Positions 2,921 to 26,533 of a DNA stretch of 64,000 bases are shown here, in pieces. The position numbers were made by a program, and so were the translations under genes. This stretch comes from Selenomonadaceae bacterium. Lineage in GTDB: Bacteria; Bacillota; Negativicutes; Selenomonadales; Selenomonadaceae. Location: the NCBI GenBank assembly GCA_024698045.1, contig JAILRS010000033.1, positions 1,159 through 65,158 on the forward strand. The letters run 5' to 3'. How positions within the stretch are numbered: the stretch's first letter is position 1; every line of letters starts with the position of its first letter. The notes under the pieces are model-generated. The model was not told where the DNA came from, searched no databases, and worked only from the letters and a program-made list of their open reading frames with translations.

Positions 2921-3721
2921 ATGGTTGTGGAAATTATCAGTGTAGGTACAGAAATTTTGATGGGCAATATCGTCAATACGAATGCGCAGTATCTTGCGAA
3001 GAAGTTGGCACATTTGGGGCTTGATTGTCATTTTCAGACGGTAGTCGGCGATAATCCCGAAAGAATAAAATCCGCGCTTGATGTTGCCTATTCTCGTGCG
3101 GATGCCGTAATCATGACCGGCGGTCTGGGACCTACGAAAGATGATTTGACGAAAGAAATGTTAATGAAGTATTTCGGCAAGACTCCCGTTGTCGATGAAA
3201 AAGTTTTGAGTTTTCTCGAGGAGCATGTAAAAAAACGCGGCTTTGAAAAATTATCCGACGGTATGCGTAAACAGGCAATAGTCCCCGCCGATTCGATTAT
3301 CCTCTACAATCACAACGGAACTGCGCCCGGTTGTATCATGGAGCGCGACGGAAAAATTTGTATCCTTCTGCCGGGTCCTCCGCACGAAATGAAACCGATG
3401 TTTGAAGAATGTTGCAAAGTTTATCTCAACGGTAAGAGCGATAAAGTTTTCGTGTCGGTGATAATAAAATGTTTGAGCAAAGACGAGGCACCGATAACGA
3501 TGGTGGGCGAAGCTCCGATAGCCGACAGGTTAGACGAATTGACCGATGGAGTTAATCCGACGGTAGCAACTTACGCAAAGCAGGACGGTTGTCTTGTTCG
3601 CATAACCGCGTCCGCAAAAAATCACAGTGACGCCATGAGGCTTTTAACTCCCGTCGTGAATGAATGCCGCAAACGTATCGGCAAAGGATATATCAGTTAC
3701 ATTGAGGAAGATATAAACTGA
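2921..3721 (+). CDS. cinA: CinA-like competence/damage-inducible protein, molybdopterin-binding (MoCF) domain only
   Basis: Track ORF 2657..3721. Homology starts at internal ATG 2921 (MVVEIISVGTEILMGNIVNTNAQYLAKKL...GGLGPTKDDLTKE). At ~267 aa there is no C-terminal PncC deamidase domain. Confidence 0.85.
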   Translation: MVVEIISVGTEILMGNIVNTNAQYLAKKLAHLGLDCHFQTVVGDNPERIKSALDVAYSRADAVIMTGGLGPTKDDLTKEMLMKYFGKTPVVDEKVLSFLEEHVKKRGFEKLSDGMRKQAIVPADSIILYNHNGTAPGCIMERDGKICILLPGPPHEMKPMFEECCKVYLNGKSDKVFVSVIIKCLSKDEAPITMVGEAPIADRLDELTDGVNPTVATYAKQDGCLVRITASAKNHSDAMRLLTPVVNECRKRIGKGYISYIEEDIN

Positions 3722-3736
3722 AGGAGATGAGCAATT

Positions 3737-4708
3737 ATGATTATCGTAACGGGCGGCGCGGGATTTATCGGCAGTAATATTGTCCGCGCCTTGAACGAAC
3801 GAGGACGAACCGATGTTTTGATTGTCGACGATTTGGGCGAAGGTGACAAATATAAAAATTTAATCGGTCTTCGTTTCGTCGACTACTGCCACAAAGACAA
3901 TTTCATGAAGTTGATTAAAGAAAGTACGTTAGGGCAAAACATTACCGCGATTTTCCACGAAGGAGCTTGCTCCGATACAATGCAATATGATGTCAATTTC
4001 ATGATGCGCAGTAATTACGAGTACTCAAAGGAACTCCTGCGCACGTGTATCGCCAAACAAATTACGTTTATTTACGCGTCGAGTGCCTCGGTCTACGGTA
4101 TGGGCAAAAACGGTTTCCGTGAAGAAGAAGCCTGCGAAAATGCATTGAATCCCTACGCCTTTTCCAAATTGATTTTCGATCGTTACGCCAGACAATTTTT
4201 CGCCGCGGCAAAAAGCAAAATCATCGGTCTGCGCTATTTTAATGTCTTCGGTCAACAGGAAAGTCACAAAGGTAAAATGGCGTCGATTTTCTATCAGATG
4301 TATCGCCGAATGAAATTGGGTGGCAGTCCGAAACTTTTCAAAGGTACGGACGGATACGGCGACGGCGAACAGCGACGCGATTTTGTTTACGTCAAGGACG
4401 TTGTAAAAGTAAATCTTTGGTGTCTCGACAATAATCTTGCCAACGGAATTTATAACTGCGGTACGGGTCACGCGCATACTTATAACGAAGTGGCAAAGGC
4501 AATGATTGACGCAATGAATTCCAAAATGAAAACGACTTATTGCGATTTTCCCGACGCGCTTATCGGAAAATATCAGAGTTTCACGGAAGCGGATATGACA
4601 AAACTTTCCGCGGCAGGTTACAAAGAAGGTTTCACGAAATTTAACACGGCGGTCGCCGAATATTGCAAATTCCTCGAGGACGGCGGTTATTACACGTTGG
4701 GGAAATAA
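3737..4708 (+). CDS. hldD: ADP-L-glycero-D-manno-heptose 6-epimerase (LPS core heptose synthesis)
   Basis: MIIVTGGAGFIGSNIVRALNERG...IFHEGACSDT...YASSASVYG...YAFSKL...FRYFNVFG is near-collinear with E. coli HldD/RfaD as I recall it. Confidence 0.92.
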   Translation: MIIVTGGAGFIGSNIVRALNERGRTDVLIVDDLGEGDKYKNLIGLRFVDYCHKDNFMKLIKESTLGQNITAIFHEGACSDTMQYDVNFMMRSNYEYSKELLRTCIAKQITFIYASSASVYGMGKNGFREEEACENALNPYAFSKLIFDRYARQFFAAAKSKIIGLRYFNVFGQQESHKGKMASIFYQMYRRMKLGGSPKLFKGTDGYGDGEQRRDFVYVKDVVKVNLWCLDNNLANGIYNCGTGHAHTYNEVAKAMIDAMNSKMKTTYCDFPDALIGKYQSFTEADMTKLSAAGYKEGFTKFNTAVAEYCKFLEDGGYYTLGK

Positions 4709-4766
4709 TTTGACGACCGAAAGGCGGTGGACGGTTGCGGAAAAATTTTAAGCCGCGCCGATTGTC

Positions 4767-5433: not shown

Positions 5434-6126
5434 GTGTTCATTAAAAAATTTTTTGGTTTAATGTTGCTGGTGGCGTTAATAATTTTGCCGCAAAACGTTT
5501 CTGCGGAGAAAACAGATTGGTTTGACAGGAATTTCAACTTTCATCGCATGAGAAACGTCATAGTTTTCAATGTCGACTTCAATCAGAATTATAATTCGGT
5601 CGACGCGTTAAACATGAGAGACACTTACTACAAGAACGCACGAAAGTTAAAATGCAACATCATCACGGAAGAAGAGGCACGGCGCAGTATCGGTTATCAA
5701 ATCGGAATGGATTTGGAATCAATGGCGCGATCCAATCCGTTGGGCGCAAGACAAGTCATCATGGAGAACGCTTATAACATCGCCGACGGTTGGGTGACGG
5801 CAACTGTTGACACTTGGGAAAATACTTATTACATTGAACCCGAGCGAACTGTTTGGGAGCAAAGACGCGAAACTCGTACCTATTACGACGCATGGGGACA
5901 ACGCCGCGAAGAAGTTTATTACGTGCAAGTGCCGGTTACTTATCCTCCGCGCCGCGTCGACGTTTCCACCATTCAGATGACTTTGCAGCTGTTTGACGCA
6001 AGGAGTGGCGCACAGGTTTTCAGTCGCAAAGATGTTCGCGATCGTGAAGATTATCAGGCACAAAAAGGTATGTACGGCAGAATCACGAATTCATTCTTTG
6101 AGGACGTCGGCAAGAAAATTAAATGA
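5434..6126 (+). CDS. secreted protein of unknown function; paralog of 7219..7926
   Basis: GTG start after GGAGGTGG. Signal peptide ...PQNVSA|EKTDW. Shares AEK(T/S)DW, N(F/Y)NF, ITE(E/D)EA, (V/I)MxNA(Y/W)xIAD, (D/E)TWxN and YYD..G blocks with the 7219 ORF. Confidence 0.75.
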   Translation: MFIKKFFGLMLLVALIILPQNVSAEKTDWFDRNFNFHRMRNVIVFNVDFNQNYNSVDALNMRDTYYKNARKLKCNIITEEEARRSIGYQIGMDLESMARSNPLGARQVIMENAYNIADGWVTATVDTWENTYYIEPERTVWEQRRETRTYYDAWGQRREEVYYVQVPVTYPPRRVDVSTIQMTLQLFDARSGAQVFSRKDVRDREDYQAQKGMYGRITNSFFEDVGKKIK

Positions 6127-6182
6127 TTTATGATACCAATCGGCGGAAAAATTTTTGCCGAAATATAAGGAGGTTTTTTTAT

Positions 6183-7133
6183 ATGGACAAATACTTCAAG
6201 ATTGTTTCTCGCATCGGTATTGCCCTGTTGATGATTTGCGCGGTAATTTTTCCCGGCAAAACATTTGCGGCTGACAATCCCAATTCGGAGGGCATGAAGG
6301 CTTTCCGCGAGGCTTTAACTTCGGATTCCGATTCTCTCGACAGGATTTTCCGTCAAGATATTTACTTCGCCTCTCCGTTTATCATAAGTGAGTTGGAAAT
6401 TTACGGCACAGTCGAAAAAGATGAGTTTATTTCCTACGGCGATTTCTCCATGTGGGTTTACAATGATGACGGTACGCAAAGCGAAAATATCATCCCCTAC
6501 TACATGGTGCAGAACGGCAAAGACATGACGATTTATTTTAAGACCGACAAGAAGTGGCAAAAATTCACGACGCCCAGTCTTGCCGCGGCAGTCATGGATA
6601 TGCTTGCAACACCCACCGAACAGGAAGTCGAAGAAATAATAGCAGATACCAAAGATGTTACGATTTTGCAGGACAACGATTATCGCCGCATAATGCTTAT
6701 CCGTGTTGACGGCAATCGTATTGCCGATTCCTTCAAAAATAAATCCGATGAAAATCCTGCCGACAAAGGTACTGCCACCGACAGTGCATTGCAGGAAAAA
6801 ATTGTTGGTTACATGGATTCGGCTTTGCGCAAGGCAGATGTCTGGTACATGTGGACGATTGATAAACGCGATTGGCATACGGTAGCTATGCAATACAATT
6901 TCTCCGGTATCATTCAGGAAATGGCGCGCGCGGCACTCAACGACCCCGAACAACAATGGCCTGACGAAATAAGCAATATGCTTGAAACAATCGCCTACTA
7001 CAGTGAGATTCGTGCCTACACAACTTATCCGGCAGATCCCAAAGCTAAGAAAAATTTTGTATTGCCTAAAGAAGTTTTGAAGGCGAAACCCGTCGATAGT
7101 TTAAGCGACAGTGTTAAAATAACCGGAAAATAA
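6183..7133 (+). CDS. secreted protein of unknown function
   Basis: Track ORF 6123..7133. Likely start is ATG 6183 (MDKYFKIVSRIGIALLMICAVIFPGKTFA|ADNP), preceded by AAGGAGG. No family recognised. Confidence 0.7.
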   Translation: MDKYFKIVSRIGIALLMICAVIFPGKTFAADNPNSEGMKAFREALTSDSDSLDRIFRQDIYFASPFIISELEIYGTVEKDEFISYGDFSMWVYNDDGTQSENIIPYYMVQNGKDMTIYFKTDKKWQKFTTPSLAAAVMDMLATPTEQEVEEIIADTKDVTILQDNDYRRIMLIRVDGNRIADSFKNKSDENPADKGTATDSALQEKIVGYMDSALRKADVWYMWTIDKRDWHTVAMQYNFSGIIQEMARAALNDPEQQWPDEISNMLETIAYYSEIRAYTTYPADPKAKKNFVLPKEVLKAKPVDSLSDSVKITGK

Positions 7134-22945: not shown

Positions 22946-22974
22946 TTGTCAGCGTGAATTGTTTGTGGTTTAAT
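22946..22974 (+). promoter_or_regulatory. sigma-70-type promoter upstream of the 23055 ORF
   Basis: TTGTCA (22946-22951), 17 nt spacer, TTTAAT (22969-22974), with TG one base upstream. Confidence 0.45.
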
Positions 22975-23054
22975 GAGCACAGAAAATTTTGTTTACGATT
23001 ACTTGAAAGGTGGTGACGACGCGGCTTGTCGTTGATATTTGCCGTGTCAATCCT

Positions 23055-23678
23055 ATGAATTTGAAAGAGGCATTTCAAGCGCAAAATTCAATCGAAAAGT
23101 TATTGTCCTTCCTCGAAGATTATTTCTCTAACGGAGATAATTTGATAAGCACGACAGAAAAACATTTTCGCTCGAAAGCTGCGCAAGGTCAGCCCGATGA
23201 AAAAATAAATATCGTCACCGAGGATAAATTTCCGCCCGATAAAGTTATCGAATTCCTTTTGGTTTTGCTTGACGAACGCGAAAAACTTGCCGCGGCGGTT
23301 CACGATACAAAGGCAGCTATGAATTTCGATTTGGATTCCGCCGTTGATGTCAACAAAAAACGTCATTGCGCTATCGAAATGTTGCGCGGTCTTCGTAACT
23401 ACAAAAGTTCAAGTCTCGTCGAAAAAAATGCCGGTGTCGGTTACGTCTTCAACAACGAAGGCAATCAAACTACTTACCGTTACGATATCGAGCGCGTCAA
23501 GACCATTGACTTTGACAGAAATAAAGTTCGCAATATTGTTGCCAAACTTCAGGAGCAGGCGGATAAAGTTTCTGCGGAAATAGATGCCGCGCTTATCTCC
23601 TCGACCGTTAACTATGAATATCCCTTCGATATGCACGCGAGTAATTTGGAGATTCTCGAGGATTTTGTAAACAGATAA
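23055..23678 (+). CDS. hypothetical protein (207 aa from ATG 23055; 222 aa if GTG 23010 is used)
   Basis: MNLKEAFQAQNSIEKLLSFLEDYF... is mostly helical by composition with a beta-like middle (GVGYVFNNEGNQTTYRYDIERVKTIDF). No family recognised. No long competing ORF in another frame. Confidence 0.65.
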   Translation: MNLKEAFQAQNSIEKLLSFLEDYFSNGDNLISTTEKHFRSKAAQGQPDEKINIVTEDKFPPDKVIEFLLVLLDEREKLAAAVHDTKAAMNFDLDSAVDVNKKRHCAIEMLRGLRNYKSSSLVEKNAGVGYVFNNEGNQTTYRYDIERVKTIDFDRNKVRNIVAKLQEQADKVSAEIDAALISSTVNYEYPFDMHASNLEILEDFVNR

Positions 23679-23687
23679 ATTTTCGTT

Positions 23688-24063
23688 CGAGGTCTCGGCG
23701 GAGGGCGGAATTTTTTCGGCGGCGTCGGTTCAGATGCAGATGAACTGAGAGGCTGCATGACCTTCGGTTTCGGGTTAATGAAACTATCTTTGACGTTTGT
23801 TTACTCCTTCGGGAATGAACACCGCTTAATATTGATTGATGCGTTCACTGCGCAGGCAATCATAAATCGTTTCGACATTACCGAAAGACACAAATCGTTA
23901 ACGCGTCAAATCGTTAACACCAAAATTCTTTAGGCACAAATACGTTTCTCCGAGATTATGCCTAATGAGGCTTTTTAAAATCTTTGAGTCGTTCGGCTTT
24001 CGTTACGGGAGTCGGCGACAAATAGACAATGCCGGAAATTTTTTGCCTTCCGCCGAGACCTTG
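23688..24063 (+). ncRNA. candidate large structured RNA / leader element closed by a long helix; alternative reading is a MITE-like inverted-repeat element
   Basis: 23688-23706 pairs with 24045-24063 (19 bp). 23707-23710 pairs with 24041-24044. 23713-23720 pairs with 24031-24038. Five of the 7 arm imperfections are G-U on the + strand. Internal hairpins: 23727-23762, 23799-23820 (C-UUCG-G capped), 23833-23862, 23870-23886, 23930-23965. Confidence 0.45.
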
Positions 24064-24073
24064 AGCGATTTTT

Positions 24074-24112
24074 AGGGACTAGAGAAATTAAATTTTCTAG
24101 TCCCTTATTTAT
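24074..24112 (+). terminator. strong hairpin with U-rich tail immediately upstream of the cydA RBS
   Basis: AGGGACTAGAGAA attaaa TTTTCTAGTCCCT (13 bp, one G-U) followed by TATTTAT. The cydA RBS AAGGGGGG starts at 24113. Confidence 0.6.
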
Positions 24113-24127
24113 AAGGGGGGAAACCTT

Positions 24128-25495
24128 ATGGACGCAGTGATTTTATCGCGATTGCAGTTCGCGATAACCACAATCTATCATTTTCTTTTCGTGCCCGTGA
24201 CGTTGGGTCTTTCAATCTTCGTCGCACTGCTTGAATTGTGGTATGTCAACAGTGACAGTTACTACGAACGATTGAAACTCAAACGGCTTGTAAAATTTTT
24301 CGGGACAATCTTCCTGATAAATTTCGCAATGGGTGTCGTAACCGGTATCGTGCAAGAATTTCATTTCGGCATGAACTGGTCGGAATACTCTCGATTCATG
24401 GGCGATATCTTCGGTGCGCCTCTTGCCTTGGAGGCTCTTACGGCTTTCTTCCTTGAATCAACTTTTATCGGGCTGTGGATTTTCGGCTGGGATAAGTTGA
24501 GCGAAAAAATGCATTGCCTTTGCATTTGGATTGTAGCCTTTGGCAGTAATTTATCAGCCTTTTGGATTCTCGTCGCCAATTCTTTCATGCAACACCCTGT
24601 AGGCTACGAAATTTCAGACGGGCGTGCGGTCATGACGAGTTTCTTTGACTTGGTTACTAATCCCTACGTTTTGGGCGAATATTTCCATGCATTGTTCGCA
24701 GGAATCACTACCGCGGGATTTTTGGTTATCGTGGTCAGCGCGTGGAAAATCGCGACGGATGATATTTCACGCGAAATGTTTGTCCGTACATTGCGCCGCG
24801 CGGTTCTGTTTACCTTCTTCGGCTTATTGGGCGTCATGGGTTCCGGTCACATGCACGCGCAATATCTTGCCGAAGCCAATCCGATGAAGTTGGCATCTTT
24901 TGAAGCTCTTTGGGAGACAGAAAATCCTGCGCCGTTCGCAATCGTAGCCGATATCAATCAAAAAGAAGGTCGCAATGATTTTGAAATCACAATCCCCAAA
25001 ATGTTTACGTTCATGGTGCATAATTCTTTCAGCGGCGAAGTAAAAGGTATCAACGATTTGCAAAATGAGGCAGTTGAAAAATACGGTAGCGGTTATTATA
25101 TCCCGAATGATGTGCGCGGTATGTTTTGGAGCTTCCGCATAATGATTGCCACGGGCGGATTGATGATGCTGGTTGTCTTCGCAATGTGGTTCGTTTCGTT
25201 TTTAAAGCGCAAGTATATCAACGATTACAAATGTTACCTGAAGATGATGCCGATACTTTTGCCGATTCCGTTTATCGCAAATTCTGTCGGCTGGTATATC
25301 GCCGAGGCAGGTCGTCAACCGTGGATAGTGGTTGGTCTGCAGAAAACCGCAGTAGCCGTCAGCCCGAATTTATCCGCCGAAGAAGTTTGGTTGACTATGA
25401 TTGGTTTCACGATAATTTATTTGGCATTGGCTGTCCTCGCGGTTTTCGCGGCGGTCAAATTTATTCGGCGCACAAAAATTACGGCGGAAGAATGA
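24128..25495 (+). CDS. cydA: cytochrome bd-type quinol oxidase subunit I
   Basis: LSRLQFAITTIYHFLFVPVTLGL...EFHFGMNWS...GRQPW(I)V are CydA signatures. 455 aa. Confidence 0.96.
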   Translation: MDAVILSRLQFAITTIYHFLFVPVTLGLSIFVALLELWYVNSDSYYERLKLKRLVKFFGTIFLINFAMGVVTGIVQEFHFGMNWSEYSRFMGDIFGAPLALEALTAFFLESTFIGLWIFGWDKLSEKMHCLCIWIVAFGSNLSAFWILVANSFMQHPVGYEISDGRAVMTSFFDLVTNPYVLGEYFHALFAGITTAGFLVIVVSAWKIATDDISREMFVRTLRRAVLFTFFGLLGVMGSGHMHAQYLAEANPMKLASFEALWETENPAPFAIVADINQKEGRNDFEITIPKMFTFMVHNSFSGEVKGINDLQNEAVEKYGSGYYIPNDVRGMFWSFRIMIATGGLMMLVVFAMWFVSFLKRKYINDYKCYLKMMPILLPIPFIANSVGWYIAEAGRQPWIVVGLQKTAVAVSPNLSAEEVWLTMIGFTIIYLALAVLAVFAAVKFIRRTKITAEE

Positions 25496-25528
25496 TTCGG
25501 AAAAATTTTCCGCAAGGGAGTGAGCAAC

Positions 25529-26533
25529 ATGGATTTAAATATTATCTGGTTCGCGCTGATAACGATACTCTTCACGGGATTTTTTATCCTCGAGGGTTTT
25601 GATTACGGCGTAGGAATAATGATGATAGGTCGCCCGAGAAATGAACGCGGACAATTTATTCGCGCAATCGGTCCCGTATGGGATGGAAACGAAGTGTGGA
25701 TGATAACGGCCGGCGGCGCAACTTTCGCGGCATTTCCGCACGTTTACGCTACCATGTTCAGCACGTTTTATATCGCGTTGTTTTTGATGTTAATGGCACT
25801 GATTATGCGCGGCGTTGCCTTTGAATTGCGCGGAAAATTTCAATCGCCCGACTGGGTAAATTTATGGGACTTCGGAATTATTTTCGGCAGTTTTGTCCCC
25901 GCGTTACTTTGGGGCGTCGCGGTCGTCAATCTCCTGCGCGGCTTACCGATTGATTTCCAAATGCATTATGTCGGAACATTTTTTGACTTGCTGAATCCCT
26001 GCGCATTGCTCGGCGGAATTTTCTTCGTCCTGCTGTTTACTTTCCACGGCGCGAATTTTTTGCTGATTAAATTATCCGACAAGGGTCTGCTGCAGGAAAT
26101 AAGTCGCCAAAGTTTTAAATTGGGAATTGCCGCGCTGATTGTCTATGTACTCTTCGGAGCGGTCGCCGCCGTCGAAACGGATTTACTTGCCAAAGCTCCG
26201 ACGATTATCTTTATCTTACTGTCAATCGTCGCGCTCGTCTACGGTTGCCGCAGTGCATATATCAAATCCGGTCAATGCGCGTTCTTTTCGTCGACGCTCA
26301 GTGTTGCTATGCTGGTATTCGGATTTTTTACGGCACTGTTCCCGAGAATCATGGTCTCGAGTATAAATCCCGAATACAGTCTTGATATTTACAATGCCGC
26401 GTCAACTTCCTACACCTTGACGATTATGACGGTAGCGGCATTAATCTTCGTGCCGATTGTCCTTTGCTATCAAGCGTGGAGCTACAAAATTTTCAAGGAA
26501 CGAATCGCGCCGACCGACGTGAATTATCATTGA
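25529..26533 (+). CDS. cydB: cytochrome bd-type quinol oxidase subunit II
   Basis: Track start is GTG 25520. ATG 25529 is 8 nt after GGGAG. MDLNIIWFALITILFTGFFILEGFDYGVG...GPVWDGNEVW are CydB motifs. Confidence 0.94.
   Translation: MDLNIIWFALITILFTGFFILEGFDYGVGIMMIGRPRNERGQFIRAIGPVWDGNEVWMITAGGATFAAFPHVYATMFSTFYIALFLMLMALIMRGVAFELRGKFQSPDWVNLWDFGIIFGSFVPALLWGVAVVNLLRGLPIDFQMHYVGTFFDLLNPCALLGGIFFVLLFTFHGANFLLIKLSDKGLLQEISRQSFKLGIAALIVYVLFGAVAAVETDLLAKAPTIIFILLSIVALVYGCRSAYIKSGQCAFFSSTLSVAMLVFGFFTALFPRIMVSSINPEYSLDIYNAASTSYTLTIMTVAALIFVPIVLCYQAWSYKIFKERIAPTDVNYH

Follow-up and report, generated by a model that had tools for sequence, protein, structure and literature searches.

What is the stretch of DNA that separates an uncharacterized gene from cydAB in a Selenomonadaceae contig, and why should its two ends pair with each other over such a length? 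An earlier note read it as a large structured RNA rather than a DNA repeat, and comparison with homologs from Quinella-like Selenomonadaceae and from phages upholds this proposal, as the closing helix (P1) is kept across unrelated sequence classes and an internal pseudoknot covaries. The best explanation, to which we assign a probability of roughly 0.6, is that gene and RNA form a new protein–RNA module of phage origin, which would be co-transcribed and whose RNA would probably be excised at P1 and bound by protein. The features of the window (the whole 64-kb stretch of DNA that was analyzed) on which the discussion relies are the following.

22946–22974, + strand: sigma-70-type promoter, read from the sequence and not listed by a simple consensus scan
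23055–23678, + strand: partner gene of an uncharacterized 207-residue protein family, from its translation; alternative GTG start at 23010
23683–23726, + strand: 5′ arm of the closing helix P1, which has 34–42 pairs across 29/29 Quinella-clade elements of three unrelated sequence classes
23727–23758, + strand: H-type pseudoknot core, GGUUCAGAUGCAGAUGAACUGAGAGGCUGCAU (32 nt), adjoining the P1 5′ arm on its inner side
23759–23856, + strand: variable zone with lineage-specific hairpins, differing in length and sequence among species
23857–23951, + strand: G-poor, C/A-rich stretch, probably single-stranded, its G-poor center shared by Quinella and phage elements
23952–23984, + strand: hairpin Hx, which follows the pyrimidine block immediately and is conserved in position
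23988–24019, + strand: hairpin Hy, found by RNAalifold, with both-side changes at two pairs
24020–24024, + strand: conserved junction AAAUA leading into the P1 3′ arm (AATAG columns invariant)
24025–24068, + strand: 3′ arm of P1, on the same basis as the 5′ arm
24074–24105, + strand: terminator-like hairpin followed by UAUUUAU, from a terminator scan; lineage-specific and outside the conserved element
24128–26533, + strand: cydA (24128–25495) and cydB (25520–26533), matching Pfam Cyt_bd_oxida_I and II

The closing helix and the folded strand

The element is 386 nt long and is closed by the pairing of 23683–23726 with 24025–24068, of which 7 pairs are G·U. P1 is the top-scoring inverted repeat of the whole window, in which its arm and the core motif each occur as a single copy. 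The helix had earlier been put at ~31 bp, and every pair then listed is present, namely 23688–23706 with 24045–24063 (19 bp, 2 G·U among them), 23707–23710 with 24041–24044 (2 G·U and 2 A-U) and, past a 2 × 2 internal loop of U·U/U·U 3′ of 23710, 23713–23720 with 24031–24038 (1 U·G); only the extent was underestimated, as the helix reaches ~40 pairs. The 7 mismatches between the arms when compared as DNA, 5 of which become G·U on the + strand, were likewise recovered.

From these wobble pairs the + strand had been proposed as the folded one, and several further lines agree. Its minimum free energy is −151.4 kcal/mol (z = −9.75 against dinucleotide shuffles) versus −121.5 kcal/mol (z = −5.4) for the − strand, a difference of 30 kcal/mol. 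On the ORF-sense strand, G·U pairs outnumber A/C mismatches by 132 to 17 in the Quinella set and by 359 to 56 in 64 distinct phage homologs, raw counts that exceed the number of separate evolutionary events because the homologs share phylogeny; with strand-symmetric scoring, the ORF-sense strand obtains the higher score in 54/64 phage elements.

Homologs of the closing helix reveal what is maintained in it. It is retained in 29/29 Quinella-like Selenomonadaceae species despite three unrelated classes of arm sequence, and in phage elements it has a median of 43.5 pairs. Between sister species that share 94% identity in the ORF, 87% in cydA and 85% in the RNA interior, the outer P1 arms are entirely different in sequence, and this replacement of both arms amounts to a clean natural experiment on what selection acts on in the stem. 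As the classes of arm do not permit an alignment (MAFFT plus RNAalifold on the whole element recovered only 21 pairs, and the interior consensus structure is incomplete), P1 pairing was scored one sequence at a time, while the pseudoknot core was scored on an ungapped alignment.

P1 has the length expected of an RNase III stem, i.e., dsRNA of at least about two helical turns. It is a long duplex of perfect to wobble pairing in which the sequence of the outer 30 bp is exchangeable as a whole, in keeping with a sequence-independent recognition of dsRNA, so that P1 is probably a processing stem of this kind, one that would release the RNA as a stable species. One part of it, UCGGCU..GGGCAGAA, is conserved in sequence in many phages and in Quinella class A, suggesting that the stem may double as a sequence-specific binding site instead of being a plain dsRNA target. 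RNase III stems of the T7 early mRNAs and of the 16S/23S rRNA operon offer a parallel, as there too a long duplex encloses a functional RNA between cistrons of one transcript, and the duplex here tolerates replacement of its sequence; the difference is that the RNA enclosed here belongs to a new family and is not rRNA, and that cleavage of P1 is a prediction.

Long terminal inverted repeats in a family associated with phages might also denote a feature that acts as DNA. Such a feature could be a MITE or another inverted repeat that is mobile, a site of recombination, or a structure inherited from phages that serves as an origin or in packaging as single-stranded DNA. Folded ssDNA tolerates G·T too, so the strand bias alone cannot separate it from RNA. 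A role as DNA is nonetheless very improbable, given that the arms covary rather than retain a common protein-binding sequence, that the Quinella element lies in the sense orientation within an operon whose promoter is conserved, and that compensatory changes in the internal pseudoknot would serve nothing in duplex DNA. Nor were the dispersed copies seen that the earlier note regarded as the mark of a MITE: the element is present once in the 64 kb, the sole window searched, and is fixed at a syntenic position in about 30 species.

Conserved and variable parts of the interior

The pseudoknot consists of stem 1, 23727–23732 with 23741–23746, and stem 2, 23734–23739 with 23753–23758. It is near-invariant in 27/29 Quinella-clade intergenic regions and in about half of the phage elements. 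In its alignment 96.6% of the cells are paired, and changes on both sides of a pair occur in 32 cells compared with 8.3 in shuffles, none of 500 shuffles reaching 32; three covarying pairs are distributed over both stems. Compensatory changes, whose absence from homologs the earlier note would have held against an RNA, are thus present in the pseudoknot stems. The simple hairpin that had been drawn at 23727–23762 is structured as claimed, its true form being this conserved pseudoknot. Taken together, the sequence comparisons indicate that the flagged stretch is a real folded RNA on the ORF-sense strand.

The other internal hairpins proposed at first are only partly conserved, and several of them are lineage-specific. 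Those at 23799–23820 and 23833–23886 fall in the lineage-variable zone, and no conserved pairing was recovered from 23759–23856, where the hairpins are predicted in the fold of the window only. This zone contains CCUUCGG at 23761 and the hairpin 23799–23820 with its C-UUCG-G cap. The following stretch reaches a G minimum of 11% over 70 nt and includes the direct repeat CAAATCGTTAAC at 23891–23902 and again at 23907–23918; repeat and CCUUCGG are both as described before. The stretch ends with a pyrimidine (CUCC) block, ACGUUUCUCC, at 23942–23951 (consensus ACACGCCUCCA), which is common to Quinella and phage elements.

A hairpin at 23930–23965 had been suggested next, and it is rivaled by Hx, which is better supported among homologs. 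In Hx, GAGAUU (23952–23957) pairs with AAUCUU (23979–23984) around an inner GCCU/AGGC stem, and the stem varies by species as AGGA/UCCU, AAGG/CCUU, AGUC/GACU and AGCU/AGCU, a reading of the alignment made by eye and carrying no tool score. Hy is formed by GUCGUU (23988–23993) and GGCGAC (24014–24019), with the consensus GUCGCC/GGCGGC and frequently a UUCG cap, and is followed by a junction that reads RAAUAG in Quinella and AAAUGG in phages. Two other candidates were set aside. Pairing between AGGUG of the pseudoknot 5′ strand and CGCCU of the pyrimidine block, judged by eye, is possible in some sequences and breaks down in others; an internal 58-aa ORF at 23757–23933 has no family match, and its ATG is missing in homologs.

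This interior bears on two further explanations. According to one of them, the element is only a device for mRNA processing or stability, either an oversized intercistronic RNase III site or a 3′ stabilizer of the ORF message, an idea that fits the very tight intercistronic placement and the long duplex with its replaceable sequence. A processing stem has no need of a conserved interior, yet the 32-nt pseudoknot, the pyrimidine block, the two hairpins and the 3′ junction are kept between Quinella and remote phages, at a protein identity of just 30–40%, and a size of 300–500 nt is upheld across both groups, all of which makes a mere processing function unlikely. The other explanation takes the G-poor, repeat-bearing center as the template in a template/primer RNA for a reverse transcriptase encoded elsewhere, in the manner of retrons or DRTs. 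An RNA closed by terminal inverted repeats, with a pseudoknot and with short direct repeats in a single-stranded, C/A-rich center, would suit such a role; the idea is hardly credible, as no reverse transcriptase lies beside the module in the window (the neighbors are PBP2 and cydAB) or among the called genes of the phage loci L035, L036 and L110–L115, and the partner protein is too small and does not match one.

The partner protein and the phage loci

The ORF upstream of the element had been called an orphan, a description that no longer holds: it belongs to a large family and is the obligate and widely distributed partner of the RNA. There are 548 close homologs in Selenomonadaceae, and in metagenomes the family comprises 757 clusters at 50% identity and 3022 at 90% identity; it is common in uncultivated phages. 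Each of the 64 distinct phage loci found via the protein has a helix-closed element of 380–522 nt downstream of the ORF, beginning a median of 14.5 nt past its stop codon (64 loci). In the reverse direction, the ORF lies directly upstream in 67/67 phage loci retrieved by the RNA core motif alone, and among the loci examined gene and RNA are never separate. This strict genetic linkage makes binding and reconstitution experiments straightforward.

No conserved third gene was found beside the module among 75 phage loci. The gene that follows has the same orientation in 48/56 loci, often 11–42 nt past P1, and its Shine–Dalgarno sequence lies 3–8 nt past the P1 arm; the genes in this position are diverse, and cydAB is not among them. 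Of 46 loci, 14 have same-strand tRNA genes no more than 3 kb away. In phages and prophages the module also adjoins accessory or defense-type genes, e.g., AbiEii and PemK.

The protein has no match in Pfam, PADLOC, PHROGs, NCBIfam or PDB by sequence profile, and none by tblastn in 50,697 GenBank phages and 72,556 plasmids. Its AlphaFold2 model is confident (pLDDT 94.4), and fold searches with this model gave no significant match; at the top stood 3KDQ, an uncharacterized protein of C. diphtheriae (TM-score 0.53 by query and 0.69 by target, E about 1), and, equally non-significant, an uncharacterized Vibrio phage protein. No RNA-binding domain is recognizable in it. The invariant polar residues are K4, E5, Q10, N11, R39, K41, K86, D94, N100, N133, N137, Q138, Y141, D154, R155, S173 and D177.

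Searches with the RNA gave a similar outcome. At the gathering score, none of the 4227 models of Rfam 15 matches anywhere in the whole window; these models include RNase P, tmRNA, SRP, 6S, ROOL, GOLLD, HEARO, OLE and raiA, as well as group I and II introns and riboswitches. At E ≤ 10 over 23400–24300 there were chance-level matches only, Rfam found nothing but tRNAs over 22 phage loci, and a permissive search of two phage loci at E ≤ 1 likewise yielded no model for the RNA. A clean match to a known family, which the earlier note counted against its proposal, was therefore seen neither in the window nor in the 22 phage loci. ARAGORN detected no tmRNA or tRNA-like domain on the element in the window and 46 phage loci. 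In the literature, searched also with the core sequence as text, no description of the module was found; a survey of >10,000 short phage RNA motifs may contain fragments of the element anonymously (PMC10690425). The RNA family and the protein family are both outside every curated library searched.

Several named systems resemble the module in part. In rsr (Ro60)–Y RNA and smpB–ssrA (tmRNA), a protein gene is followed by an RNA on the same strand whose ends are paired in a long stem. The present module has the same layout of gene and then RNA with an end-pairing stem, and its order of long helix, H-type pseudoknot, single-stranded stretch and further helices also resembles that of tmRNA. Both the cleavage by RNase III and the binding of the RNA by the protein are predicted by analogy with such neighboring pairs of protein and RNA genes. 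The partner protein differs in having no TROVE or SmpB domain, and neither Y RNA nor tmRNA gives an Rfam match on the element. The omega RNAs of IscB/TnpB (HEARO) and the bridge RNA of IS110 share with it the obligate linkage, an RNA that abuts the ORF and the spread through mobile genomes; here the partner is a protein of 207 residues that lacks RuvC, HNH and DEDD domains, the element has no HEARO match in Rfam, and no hypervariable guide-like segment was identified in it. ROOL and GOLLD, Rfam families of large ornate RNAs with structures solved by cryo-EM (PMC12286853), are likewise large and structured, lack an assigned function, and come from phages and prophages of the rumen and the gut, where tRNA genes are often close by. 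The present element is smaller (300–520 nt), has no Rfam match and invariably goes with a single specific protein gene, a pairing that is not known for ROOL or GOLLD.

Type III toxin–antitoxin systems (ToxIN, CptIN) are similar in combining a protein with a pseudoknotted RNA and in being carried by phages and plasmids, which raises the question of whether the RNA neutralizes a toxic protein here as well. The obligate linkage, the position of the phage and prophage modules beside AbiEii and PemK genes and the pseudoknot as the conserved core of the RNA would all be in keeping with this. The gene order is reversed, with the RNA downstream of the protein gene and not upstream behind a terminator; tandem repeats are missing from the RNA (none in 23000–24200), and the protein matches no ToxN, CptN, AbiE-type, Pfam toxin or PADLOC model. 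Furthermore, fixed chromosomal inheritance with a conserved ORF over about 30 species is atypical of addiction modules, and we consider a toxin–antitoxin pair improbable, if worth keeping in mind.

The chromosomal locus ahead of cydAB

In the window, the module is flanked by chromosomal and not by prophage genes (LepA, LpxI/A/C, PBP2, FabF and others). Its promoter is composed of a −35 box TTGTCA (22946–22951), a 17-nt spacer with an extended TG (22966–22967) and a −10 box TTTAAT (22969–22974), and in clade A and clade B homologs the promoter block TTGTCAAcgggcgcgaTTTATGaTTTAATAA is conserved ~40 nt ahead of the start of the ORF. In the Quinella clade, cydA and cydB are the downstream cistrons of the ORF–element transcription unit; the order ORF–element–cydA is found in 30/34 related loci, its syntenic position is fixed over about 30 species, and in most related species the gap between the element and the start codon of cydA is only 25–33 nt. 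The co-transcription with the ORF from the promoter at 22946 that had been proposed in the earlier note agrees with the conservation of this promoter in relatives and with the tight gap to cydA.

The protein–RNA module that we favor would thus consist of a gene for a 207-residue protein followed by a structured RNA of 300–520 nt, widespread in uncultivated phages and, in the Quinella-like Selenomonadaceae, apparently established in the chromosome at the head of the cydAB transcription unit. The layout suggests a single transcript of ORF, RNA and next gene, which would start at the conserved promoter of the ORF because there is no room for another one, and in which P1 would let the RNA domain fold independently of its translated flanks. 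Once released at P1, the RNA would probably bind the partner protein to give a ribonucleoprotein.

A bolder and more tentative extension, which we regard as possible but somewhat short of probable, is that ORF and RNA constitute a new phage-borne class of ribonucleoprotein with a biochemical activity of its own, in which the RNA would be catalytic, guiding or scaffolding and would serve early or tRNA-linked phage functions, and which a lineage of rumen bacteria would have domesticated into its oxygen-detoxifying cytochrome bd operon. If this were true, the class would have a standing comparable to omega-RNA/IscB, retron RT–ncRNA or Ro–Y RNA. Large conserved RNAs of bacteria and phages without an assigned function are rare and have repeatedly led to new biochemistry; few of them have an obligate protein partner, and the protein family in this case comprises >3000 sequence clusters with a fold that is confidently predicted yet unmatched. 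Domestication ahead of cydAB in abundant rumen bacteria also points to cellular phenotypes to seek, such as oxygen tolerance or oxidase expression.

The same locus invites another idea, that the element regulates cydAB in cis as a leader of the type of a riboswitch, an attenuator or a processive antitermination RNA, tuning the output of the oxidase genes. Quinella cydAB has no room for a promoter of its own and has to be transcribed through the element, the window has a terminator-like hairpin between element and cydA, clade B homologs carry a run of 8 U directly 3′ of P1, and the CUCC block shows generic complementarity to the Shine–Dalgarno region of cydA (−13.3 kcal/mol in the window). A leader function is nevertheless unlikely: the phage homologs carry ORF and RNA in front of unrelated genes, cydA following only in the Quinella clade, and a P1 of 40 bp is much too stable for a switching helix. 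Masking of the downstream Shine–Dalgarno sequence by the pyrimidine block was rejected, as the pairing is no better in a species' own combination (−10.38 kcal/mol) than between mismatched species (−10.71 kcal/mol), 4487/5000 permutations do as well, and covariation lends it no support. Also rejected was P1 followed by a U-run as a terminator, an arrangement seen in the Quinella clade and not general in phages, where only 20% of the elements have a T-run of at least 4 after P1. The hairpin at 24074–24105 is itself not conserved: most homologs lack it, and some of these have different hairpins, built from repeats, in its place.

Closing helix and transcription unit

The window is a stretch of ordinary chromosome from a rumen Selenomonadaceae (Quinella-like) bacterium, in which the 207-aa ORF and the structured RNA element lie among genes for LepA, a CLC channel, LpxI/A/C, a PLP-dependent decarboxylase and PBP2, and further for CydA, CydB, an exonuclease-phosphatase family protein, FabF and CheV.

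Features of the ORF-RNA module (window coordinates)
22946-22974, + strand: promoter, TTGTCA (22946-22951), 17-nt spacer with extended TG, TTTAAT (22969-22974)
23055-23678, + strand: ORF, 207 aa; the element lies between it and cydA (24128)
23683-23726 pairing with 24025-24068, + strand: closing helix P1, about 40 pairs, seven of them G·U
23727-23758, + strand: H-type pseudoknot, GGUUCAGAUGCAGAUGAACUGAGAGGCUGCAU, directly 3' of the P1 5' arm; stem 1 GGUUCA/UGAACU; stem 2 AUGCAG/CUGCAU, its 5' strand inside the stem 1 loop
23759-23856, + strand: variable zone of length-variable, lineage-specific hairpins
about 23857-23951, + strand: G-poor, C/A-rich stretch, G = 9-14% in both Quinella and phage sets
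3' end of the G-poor stretch: conserved pyrimidine (CUCC) block, ACGUUUCUCC in the window, ACACGCCUCCA in the Quinella consensus, ACAUCUCCA in phages
23952-23984, + strand: hairpin Hx, at a fixed position, with a stem sequence that varies between species (read from the alignment)
23988-24019, + strand: hairpin Hy, from RNAalifold, with both-side changes
24020-24024, + strand: conserved junction AAAUA
24074-24105, + strand: terminator-like hairpin, without conservation in homologs

Every closing-helix pair listed in the earlier note was confirmed by reading the sequence, but P1 is longer than described there and is the strongest inverted repeat of the whole 64-kb window. The Rfam scan suggested in the same note gave no gathering-score match in the window and only chance-level matches at E <= 10 around the element, and ARAGORN found no tRNA or tmRNA in the window.

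The promoter that had been proposed for the ORF is a block kept about 40 nt upstream of its start in clades A and B, where it is often preceded by the terminator of the upstream gene. On the other side, 25-33 nt separate the end of the P1 3' arm from the cydA ATG in most Quinella-clade loci. Of 56 phage loci, 48 have a same-strand gene after the element, often at 11-42 nt past the arm and with a Shine-Dalgarno sequence 3-8 nt after P1. Because a conserved ORF promoter is combined with a tightly spaced same-strand gene downstream, the layout of the sequence indicates that the RNA is an intercistronic insert in a polycistronic transcript.

A survey of related metagenome-assembled genomes, one per species, gave 34 loci, of which 30 preserve the arrangement of ORF, 340-470-nt spacer and cydA, while the gene upstream of the ORF differs. 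A helix of 34-42 pairs closes the element in all spacers with the core motif, and the P1 sequences of these Quinella-clade spacers form three unrelated classes; in each class the 3' arm complements the 5' arm of that class.

P1 classes (5' arm)
Class A: CAAGGUCUCGGCGGAGGGCAGAA...
Class B: GCGUUGCGCAUUACGCCUUGCGCAUUG...
Class C: UUCGGAGCUUUGAAAGAGGGCAG...

Sister species with exchanged arms
L001 (class A) 3630-3965 and L004 (class B) 3630-3974
L014 3630-3931 and L009 3633-3964

For the first two sisters, identity is 94% (ORF), 87% (cydA) and 85% (RNA interior), but over the outer ~30 bp their P1 arms are entirely different on both sides and the innermost 8-10 bp alone are common; the second pair repeats this pattern, with near-identical neighbours and unrelated outer arms. 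It is thus the pairing that is kept, not the sequence. In both pairs of species the two arms, 300 nt apart, were replaced together. That the inverted repeat belongs to a DNA-level mobile element is contradicted by this covariation of the arms, by synteny and by copy number, as a count over the 64-kb window, the one stretch of this genome searched for further copies, found the P1 arm and the core motif each once.

Folded strand and interior anatomy

The earlier note had placed the fold on the + strand, and the comparisons of strands agree with it. The 28 distinct Quinella-clade helices hold 132 G·U pairs versus 17 A/C mismatches and the 64 distinct phage helices 359 versus 56, although these homologs are related by descent, so that counts of pairs or loci are not counts of independent events. 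Since helix scoring rewards G·U, the identical search was run on the reverse complement as a control, and the ORF-sense strand outscored it in 54 of 64 phage elements (mean 67.8 vs 54.4). In the window, the element folds at -151.4 kcal/mol (z = -9.75) on the + strand and at -121.5 kcal/mol (z = -5.4) on the - strand. It follows that the strand which folds is the one that carries the ORF and cydA in the sense direction. Strand bias by itself would leave a DNA fold possible, G·T being tolerated in single-stranded DNA as well; the arguments for RNA are the operon layout and the pseudoknot.

The interior of the element is partly resolved. Covariation, which the earlier note had proposed as a check, was found in both stems of the pseudoknot when 42 distinct Quinella and phage cores were aligned without gaps: 96.6% of alignment cells are paired, both sides changed in 32 cells where shuffling predicts 8.3 (none of 500 shuffles got that high), and pairing falls to 25-40% when the partner columns are slid. 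Three pairs covary, one in stem 1 (GC/CG) and two in stem 2 (UA/CG, and one position with five pair types). Two UUCG features noticed earlier are present but lie inside the lineage-specific variable zone, and a direct repeat falls within the G-poor stretch; the hairpin formerly drawn at 23930-23965 is peculiar to this genome and in competition with Hx. A bare processing stem would leave this conserved interior without account.

Association of the RNA with one protein family

The ORF had been called an orphan, whereas it has 548 close homologs, all in Selenomonadaceae, and belongs to a larger family that is the partner of the RNA. Profile searches gave 757 clusters at 50% identity (E <= 1e-3) and 3022 at 90% identity (E <= 1e-5). 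No Pfam or NCBIfam model backs the NCBI label "formate dehydrogenase" on some homologs, which looks like a propagated misannotation. The AlphaFold2 model (56-sequence alignment; pLDDT 94.4, pTM 0.71) predicts four long helices and a beta-hairpin of 12-14 residues; Foldseek searches of PDB and BFVD returned no significant match, the best being uncharacterised proteins. The family has 22 invariant positions, mostly polar, which suggests a binding or active surface.

Distant members occur in phage-like contexts, near Bro-N, GP88 and PemK genes and tRNA arrays, and others adjoin serine recombinases and cI/Cro-like repressors; the family was absent by tblastn from 50,697 GenBank phage records and from PLSDB plasmids. 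Scanning IMG/VR with the protein profile gave 73 loci, many on contigs of 60-215 kb. In the 64 distinct loci with enough downstream sequence, the closing helix has 25-81 pairs (median 43.5), begins at a median distance of 14.5 nt past the ORF stop codon and encloses a gene-free element of 380-522 nt. The pseudoknot recurs at the equivalent position in about half of the phage elements, where compensatory variants include GCUUC/GAAG and CCGCAG/CUGCGG; the core of the others is a variant with two hairpins, of which the second is capped by GCGA. In the reverse test, a search of IMG/VR by the RNA core motif alone gave 94 stretches, and the ORF family stood directly upstream in every one of the 67 loci that this search added and that had 750 nt or more of upstream sequence. 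The ORF and the RNA are thus a phage module, in which a structured RNA on the sense strand sits between cistrons and is tied obligately to a single protein gene, and we put the probability of a real structured RNA in an obligate module at about 0.9.

No third gene is conserved beside the two in the phage loci, and with no reverse transcriptase nearby a template RNA for such an enzyme lacks its counterpart. In Quinella, cydAB expression has to pass through the element, so the module may also influence oxidase expression, but it cannot have arisen for this role; a leader of cydAB is at odds with the phage homologs and with the CUCC block, which does not covary with the Shine-Dalgarno region. A type III-like toxin-antitoxin pair is a possible reading of the module, but the order of the genes speaks against it, as do the lack of repeats and a stable vertical inheritance. 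No curated family or published description of the RNA or the protein was found, though short fragments may stand anonymously among the phage motifs of PMC10690425.

As for how the module might work, P1 would let the RNA domain fold apart from ribosomes translating both flanks, and it may be recognised as double-stranded RNA, which would fit its length and the wholesale exchange of its outer part. Processing stems of rRNA and intercistronic sites of T7 are precedents for excision by RNase III. By likeness to them, P1 is predicted from its sequence to be a site where RNase III excises a stable RNA; the released RNA may then be bound by the ORF protein, as in other adjacent protein-RNA gene pairs. 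Excision and ribonucleoprotein formation each seem to fall a little short of even odds.

Repeats, insertions and neighbours of the element

The 5' untranslated region of the ORF (22975-23057) carries in this genome an extra insertion of ~55 nt and no GGAGUG Shine-Dalgarno sequence, which is present in homologs; another possible start is the in-frame GTG at 23010, which follows AAAGG and would give 222 aa.

Of 46 phage loci, 14 have tRNA genes on the same strand within 3 kb, and several large phage contigs carry the module inside, or directly before, same-strand tRNA arrays.

Phage loci with tRNA arrays
L035: 1681-3973 and 7690-8384
L055: 2851-5098; the first downstream tRNA begins 9 nt past the RNA 3' arm
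L049: 2955-3602
L068: 1707-5090

In L113, where the context is temperate-phage-like, a convergent HTH_3 repressor-like gene (5986-6351, - strand) runs with its 3' end into the 3' part of the element (5661-6054), and their transcripts would be mutually antisense there.

Among the Quinella-like relatives, the element-cydA spacers of L001, L012, L025, L026 and L027 were considered together with the class B arms (e.g., L004 3630-3675). These arms and the spacer hairpins of L001, L012, L025 and L026 are built of tandem heptamer-like repeats on both arms (e.g., AGGAACU x3 vs AGUUCCU x3; GCAUUAC x3). The window hairpin at 24074-24105 occupies the same position as these spacer hairpins, and such repeats look like a recurrent route to long hairpins in Quinella-like genomes. 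Three species (L002, L024 and L031) have an HNH_3-type insertion between the element and cydA, which in L002, the one checked against Pfam, is a free-standing homing-endonuclease gene (4241-4726; E = 9.5e-12), a phage-type selfish gene beside a domesticated module. In L005 and L006, a segment that includes some of the P1 3' arm (…GCGCCGAGACCUUGAAC) recurs twice more in tandem ~230 nt past the element, and these copies are alternative partners for the P1 5' arm.
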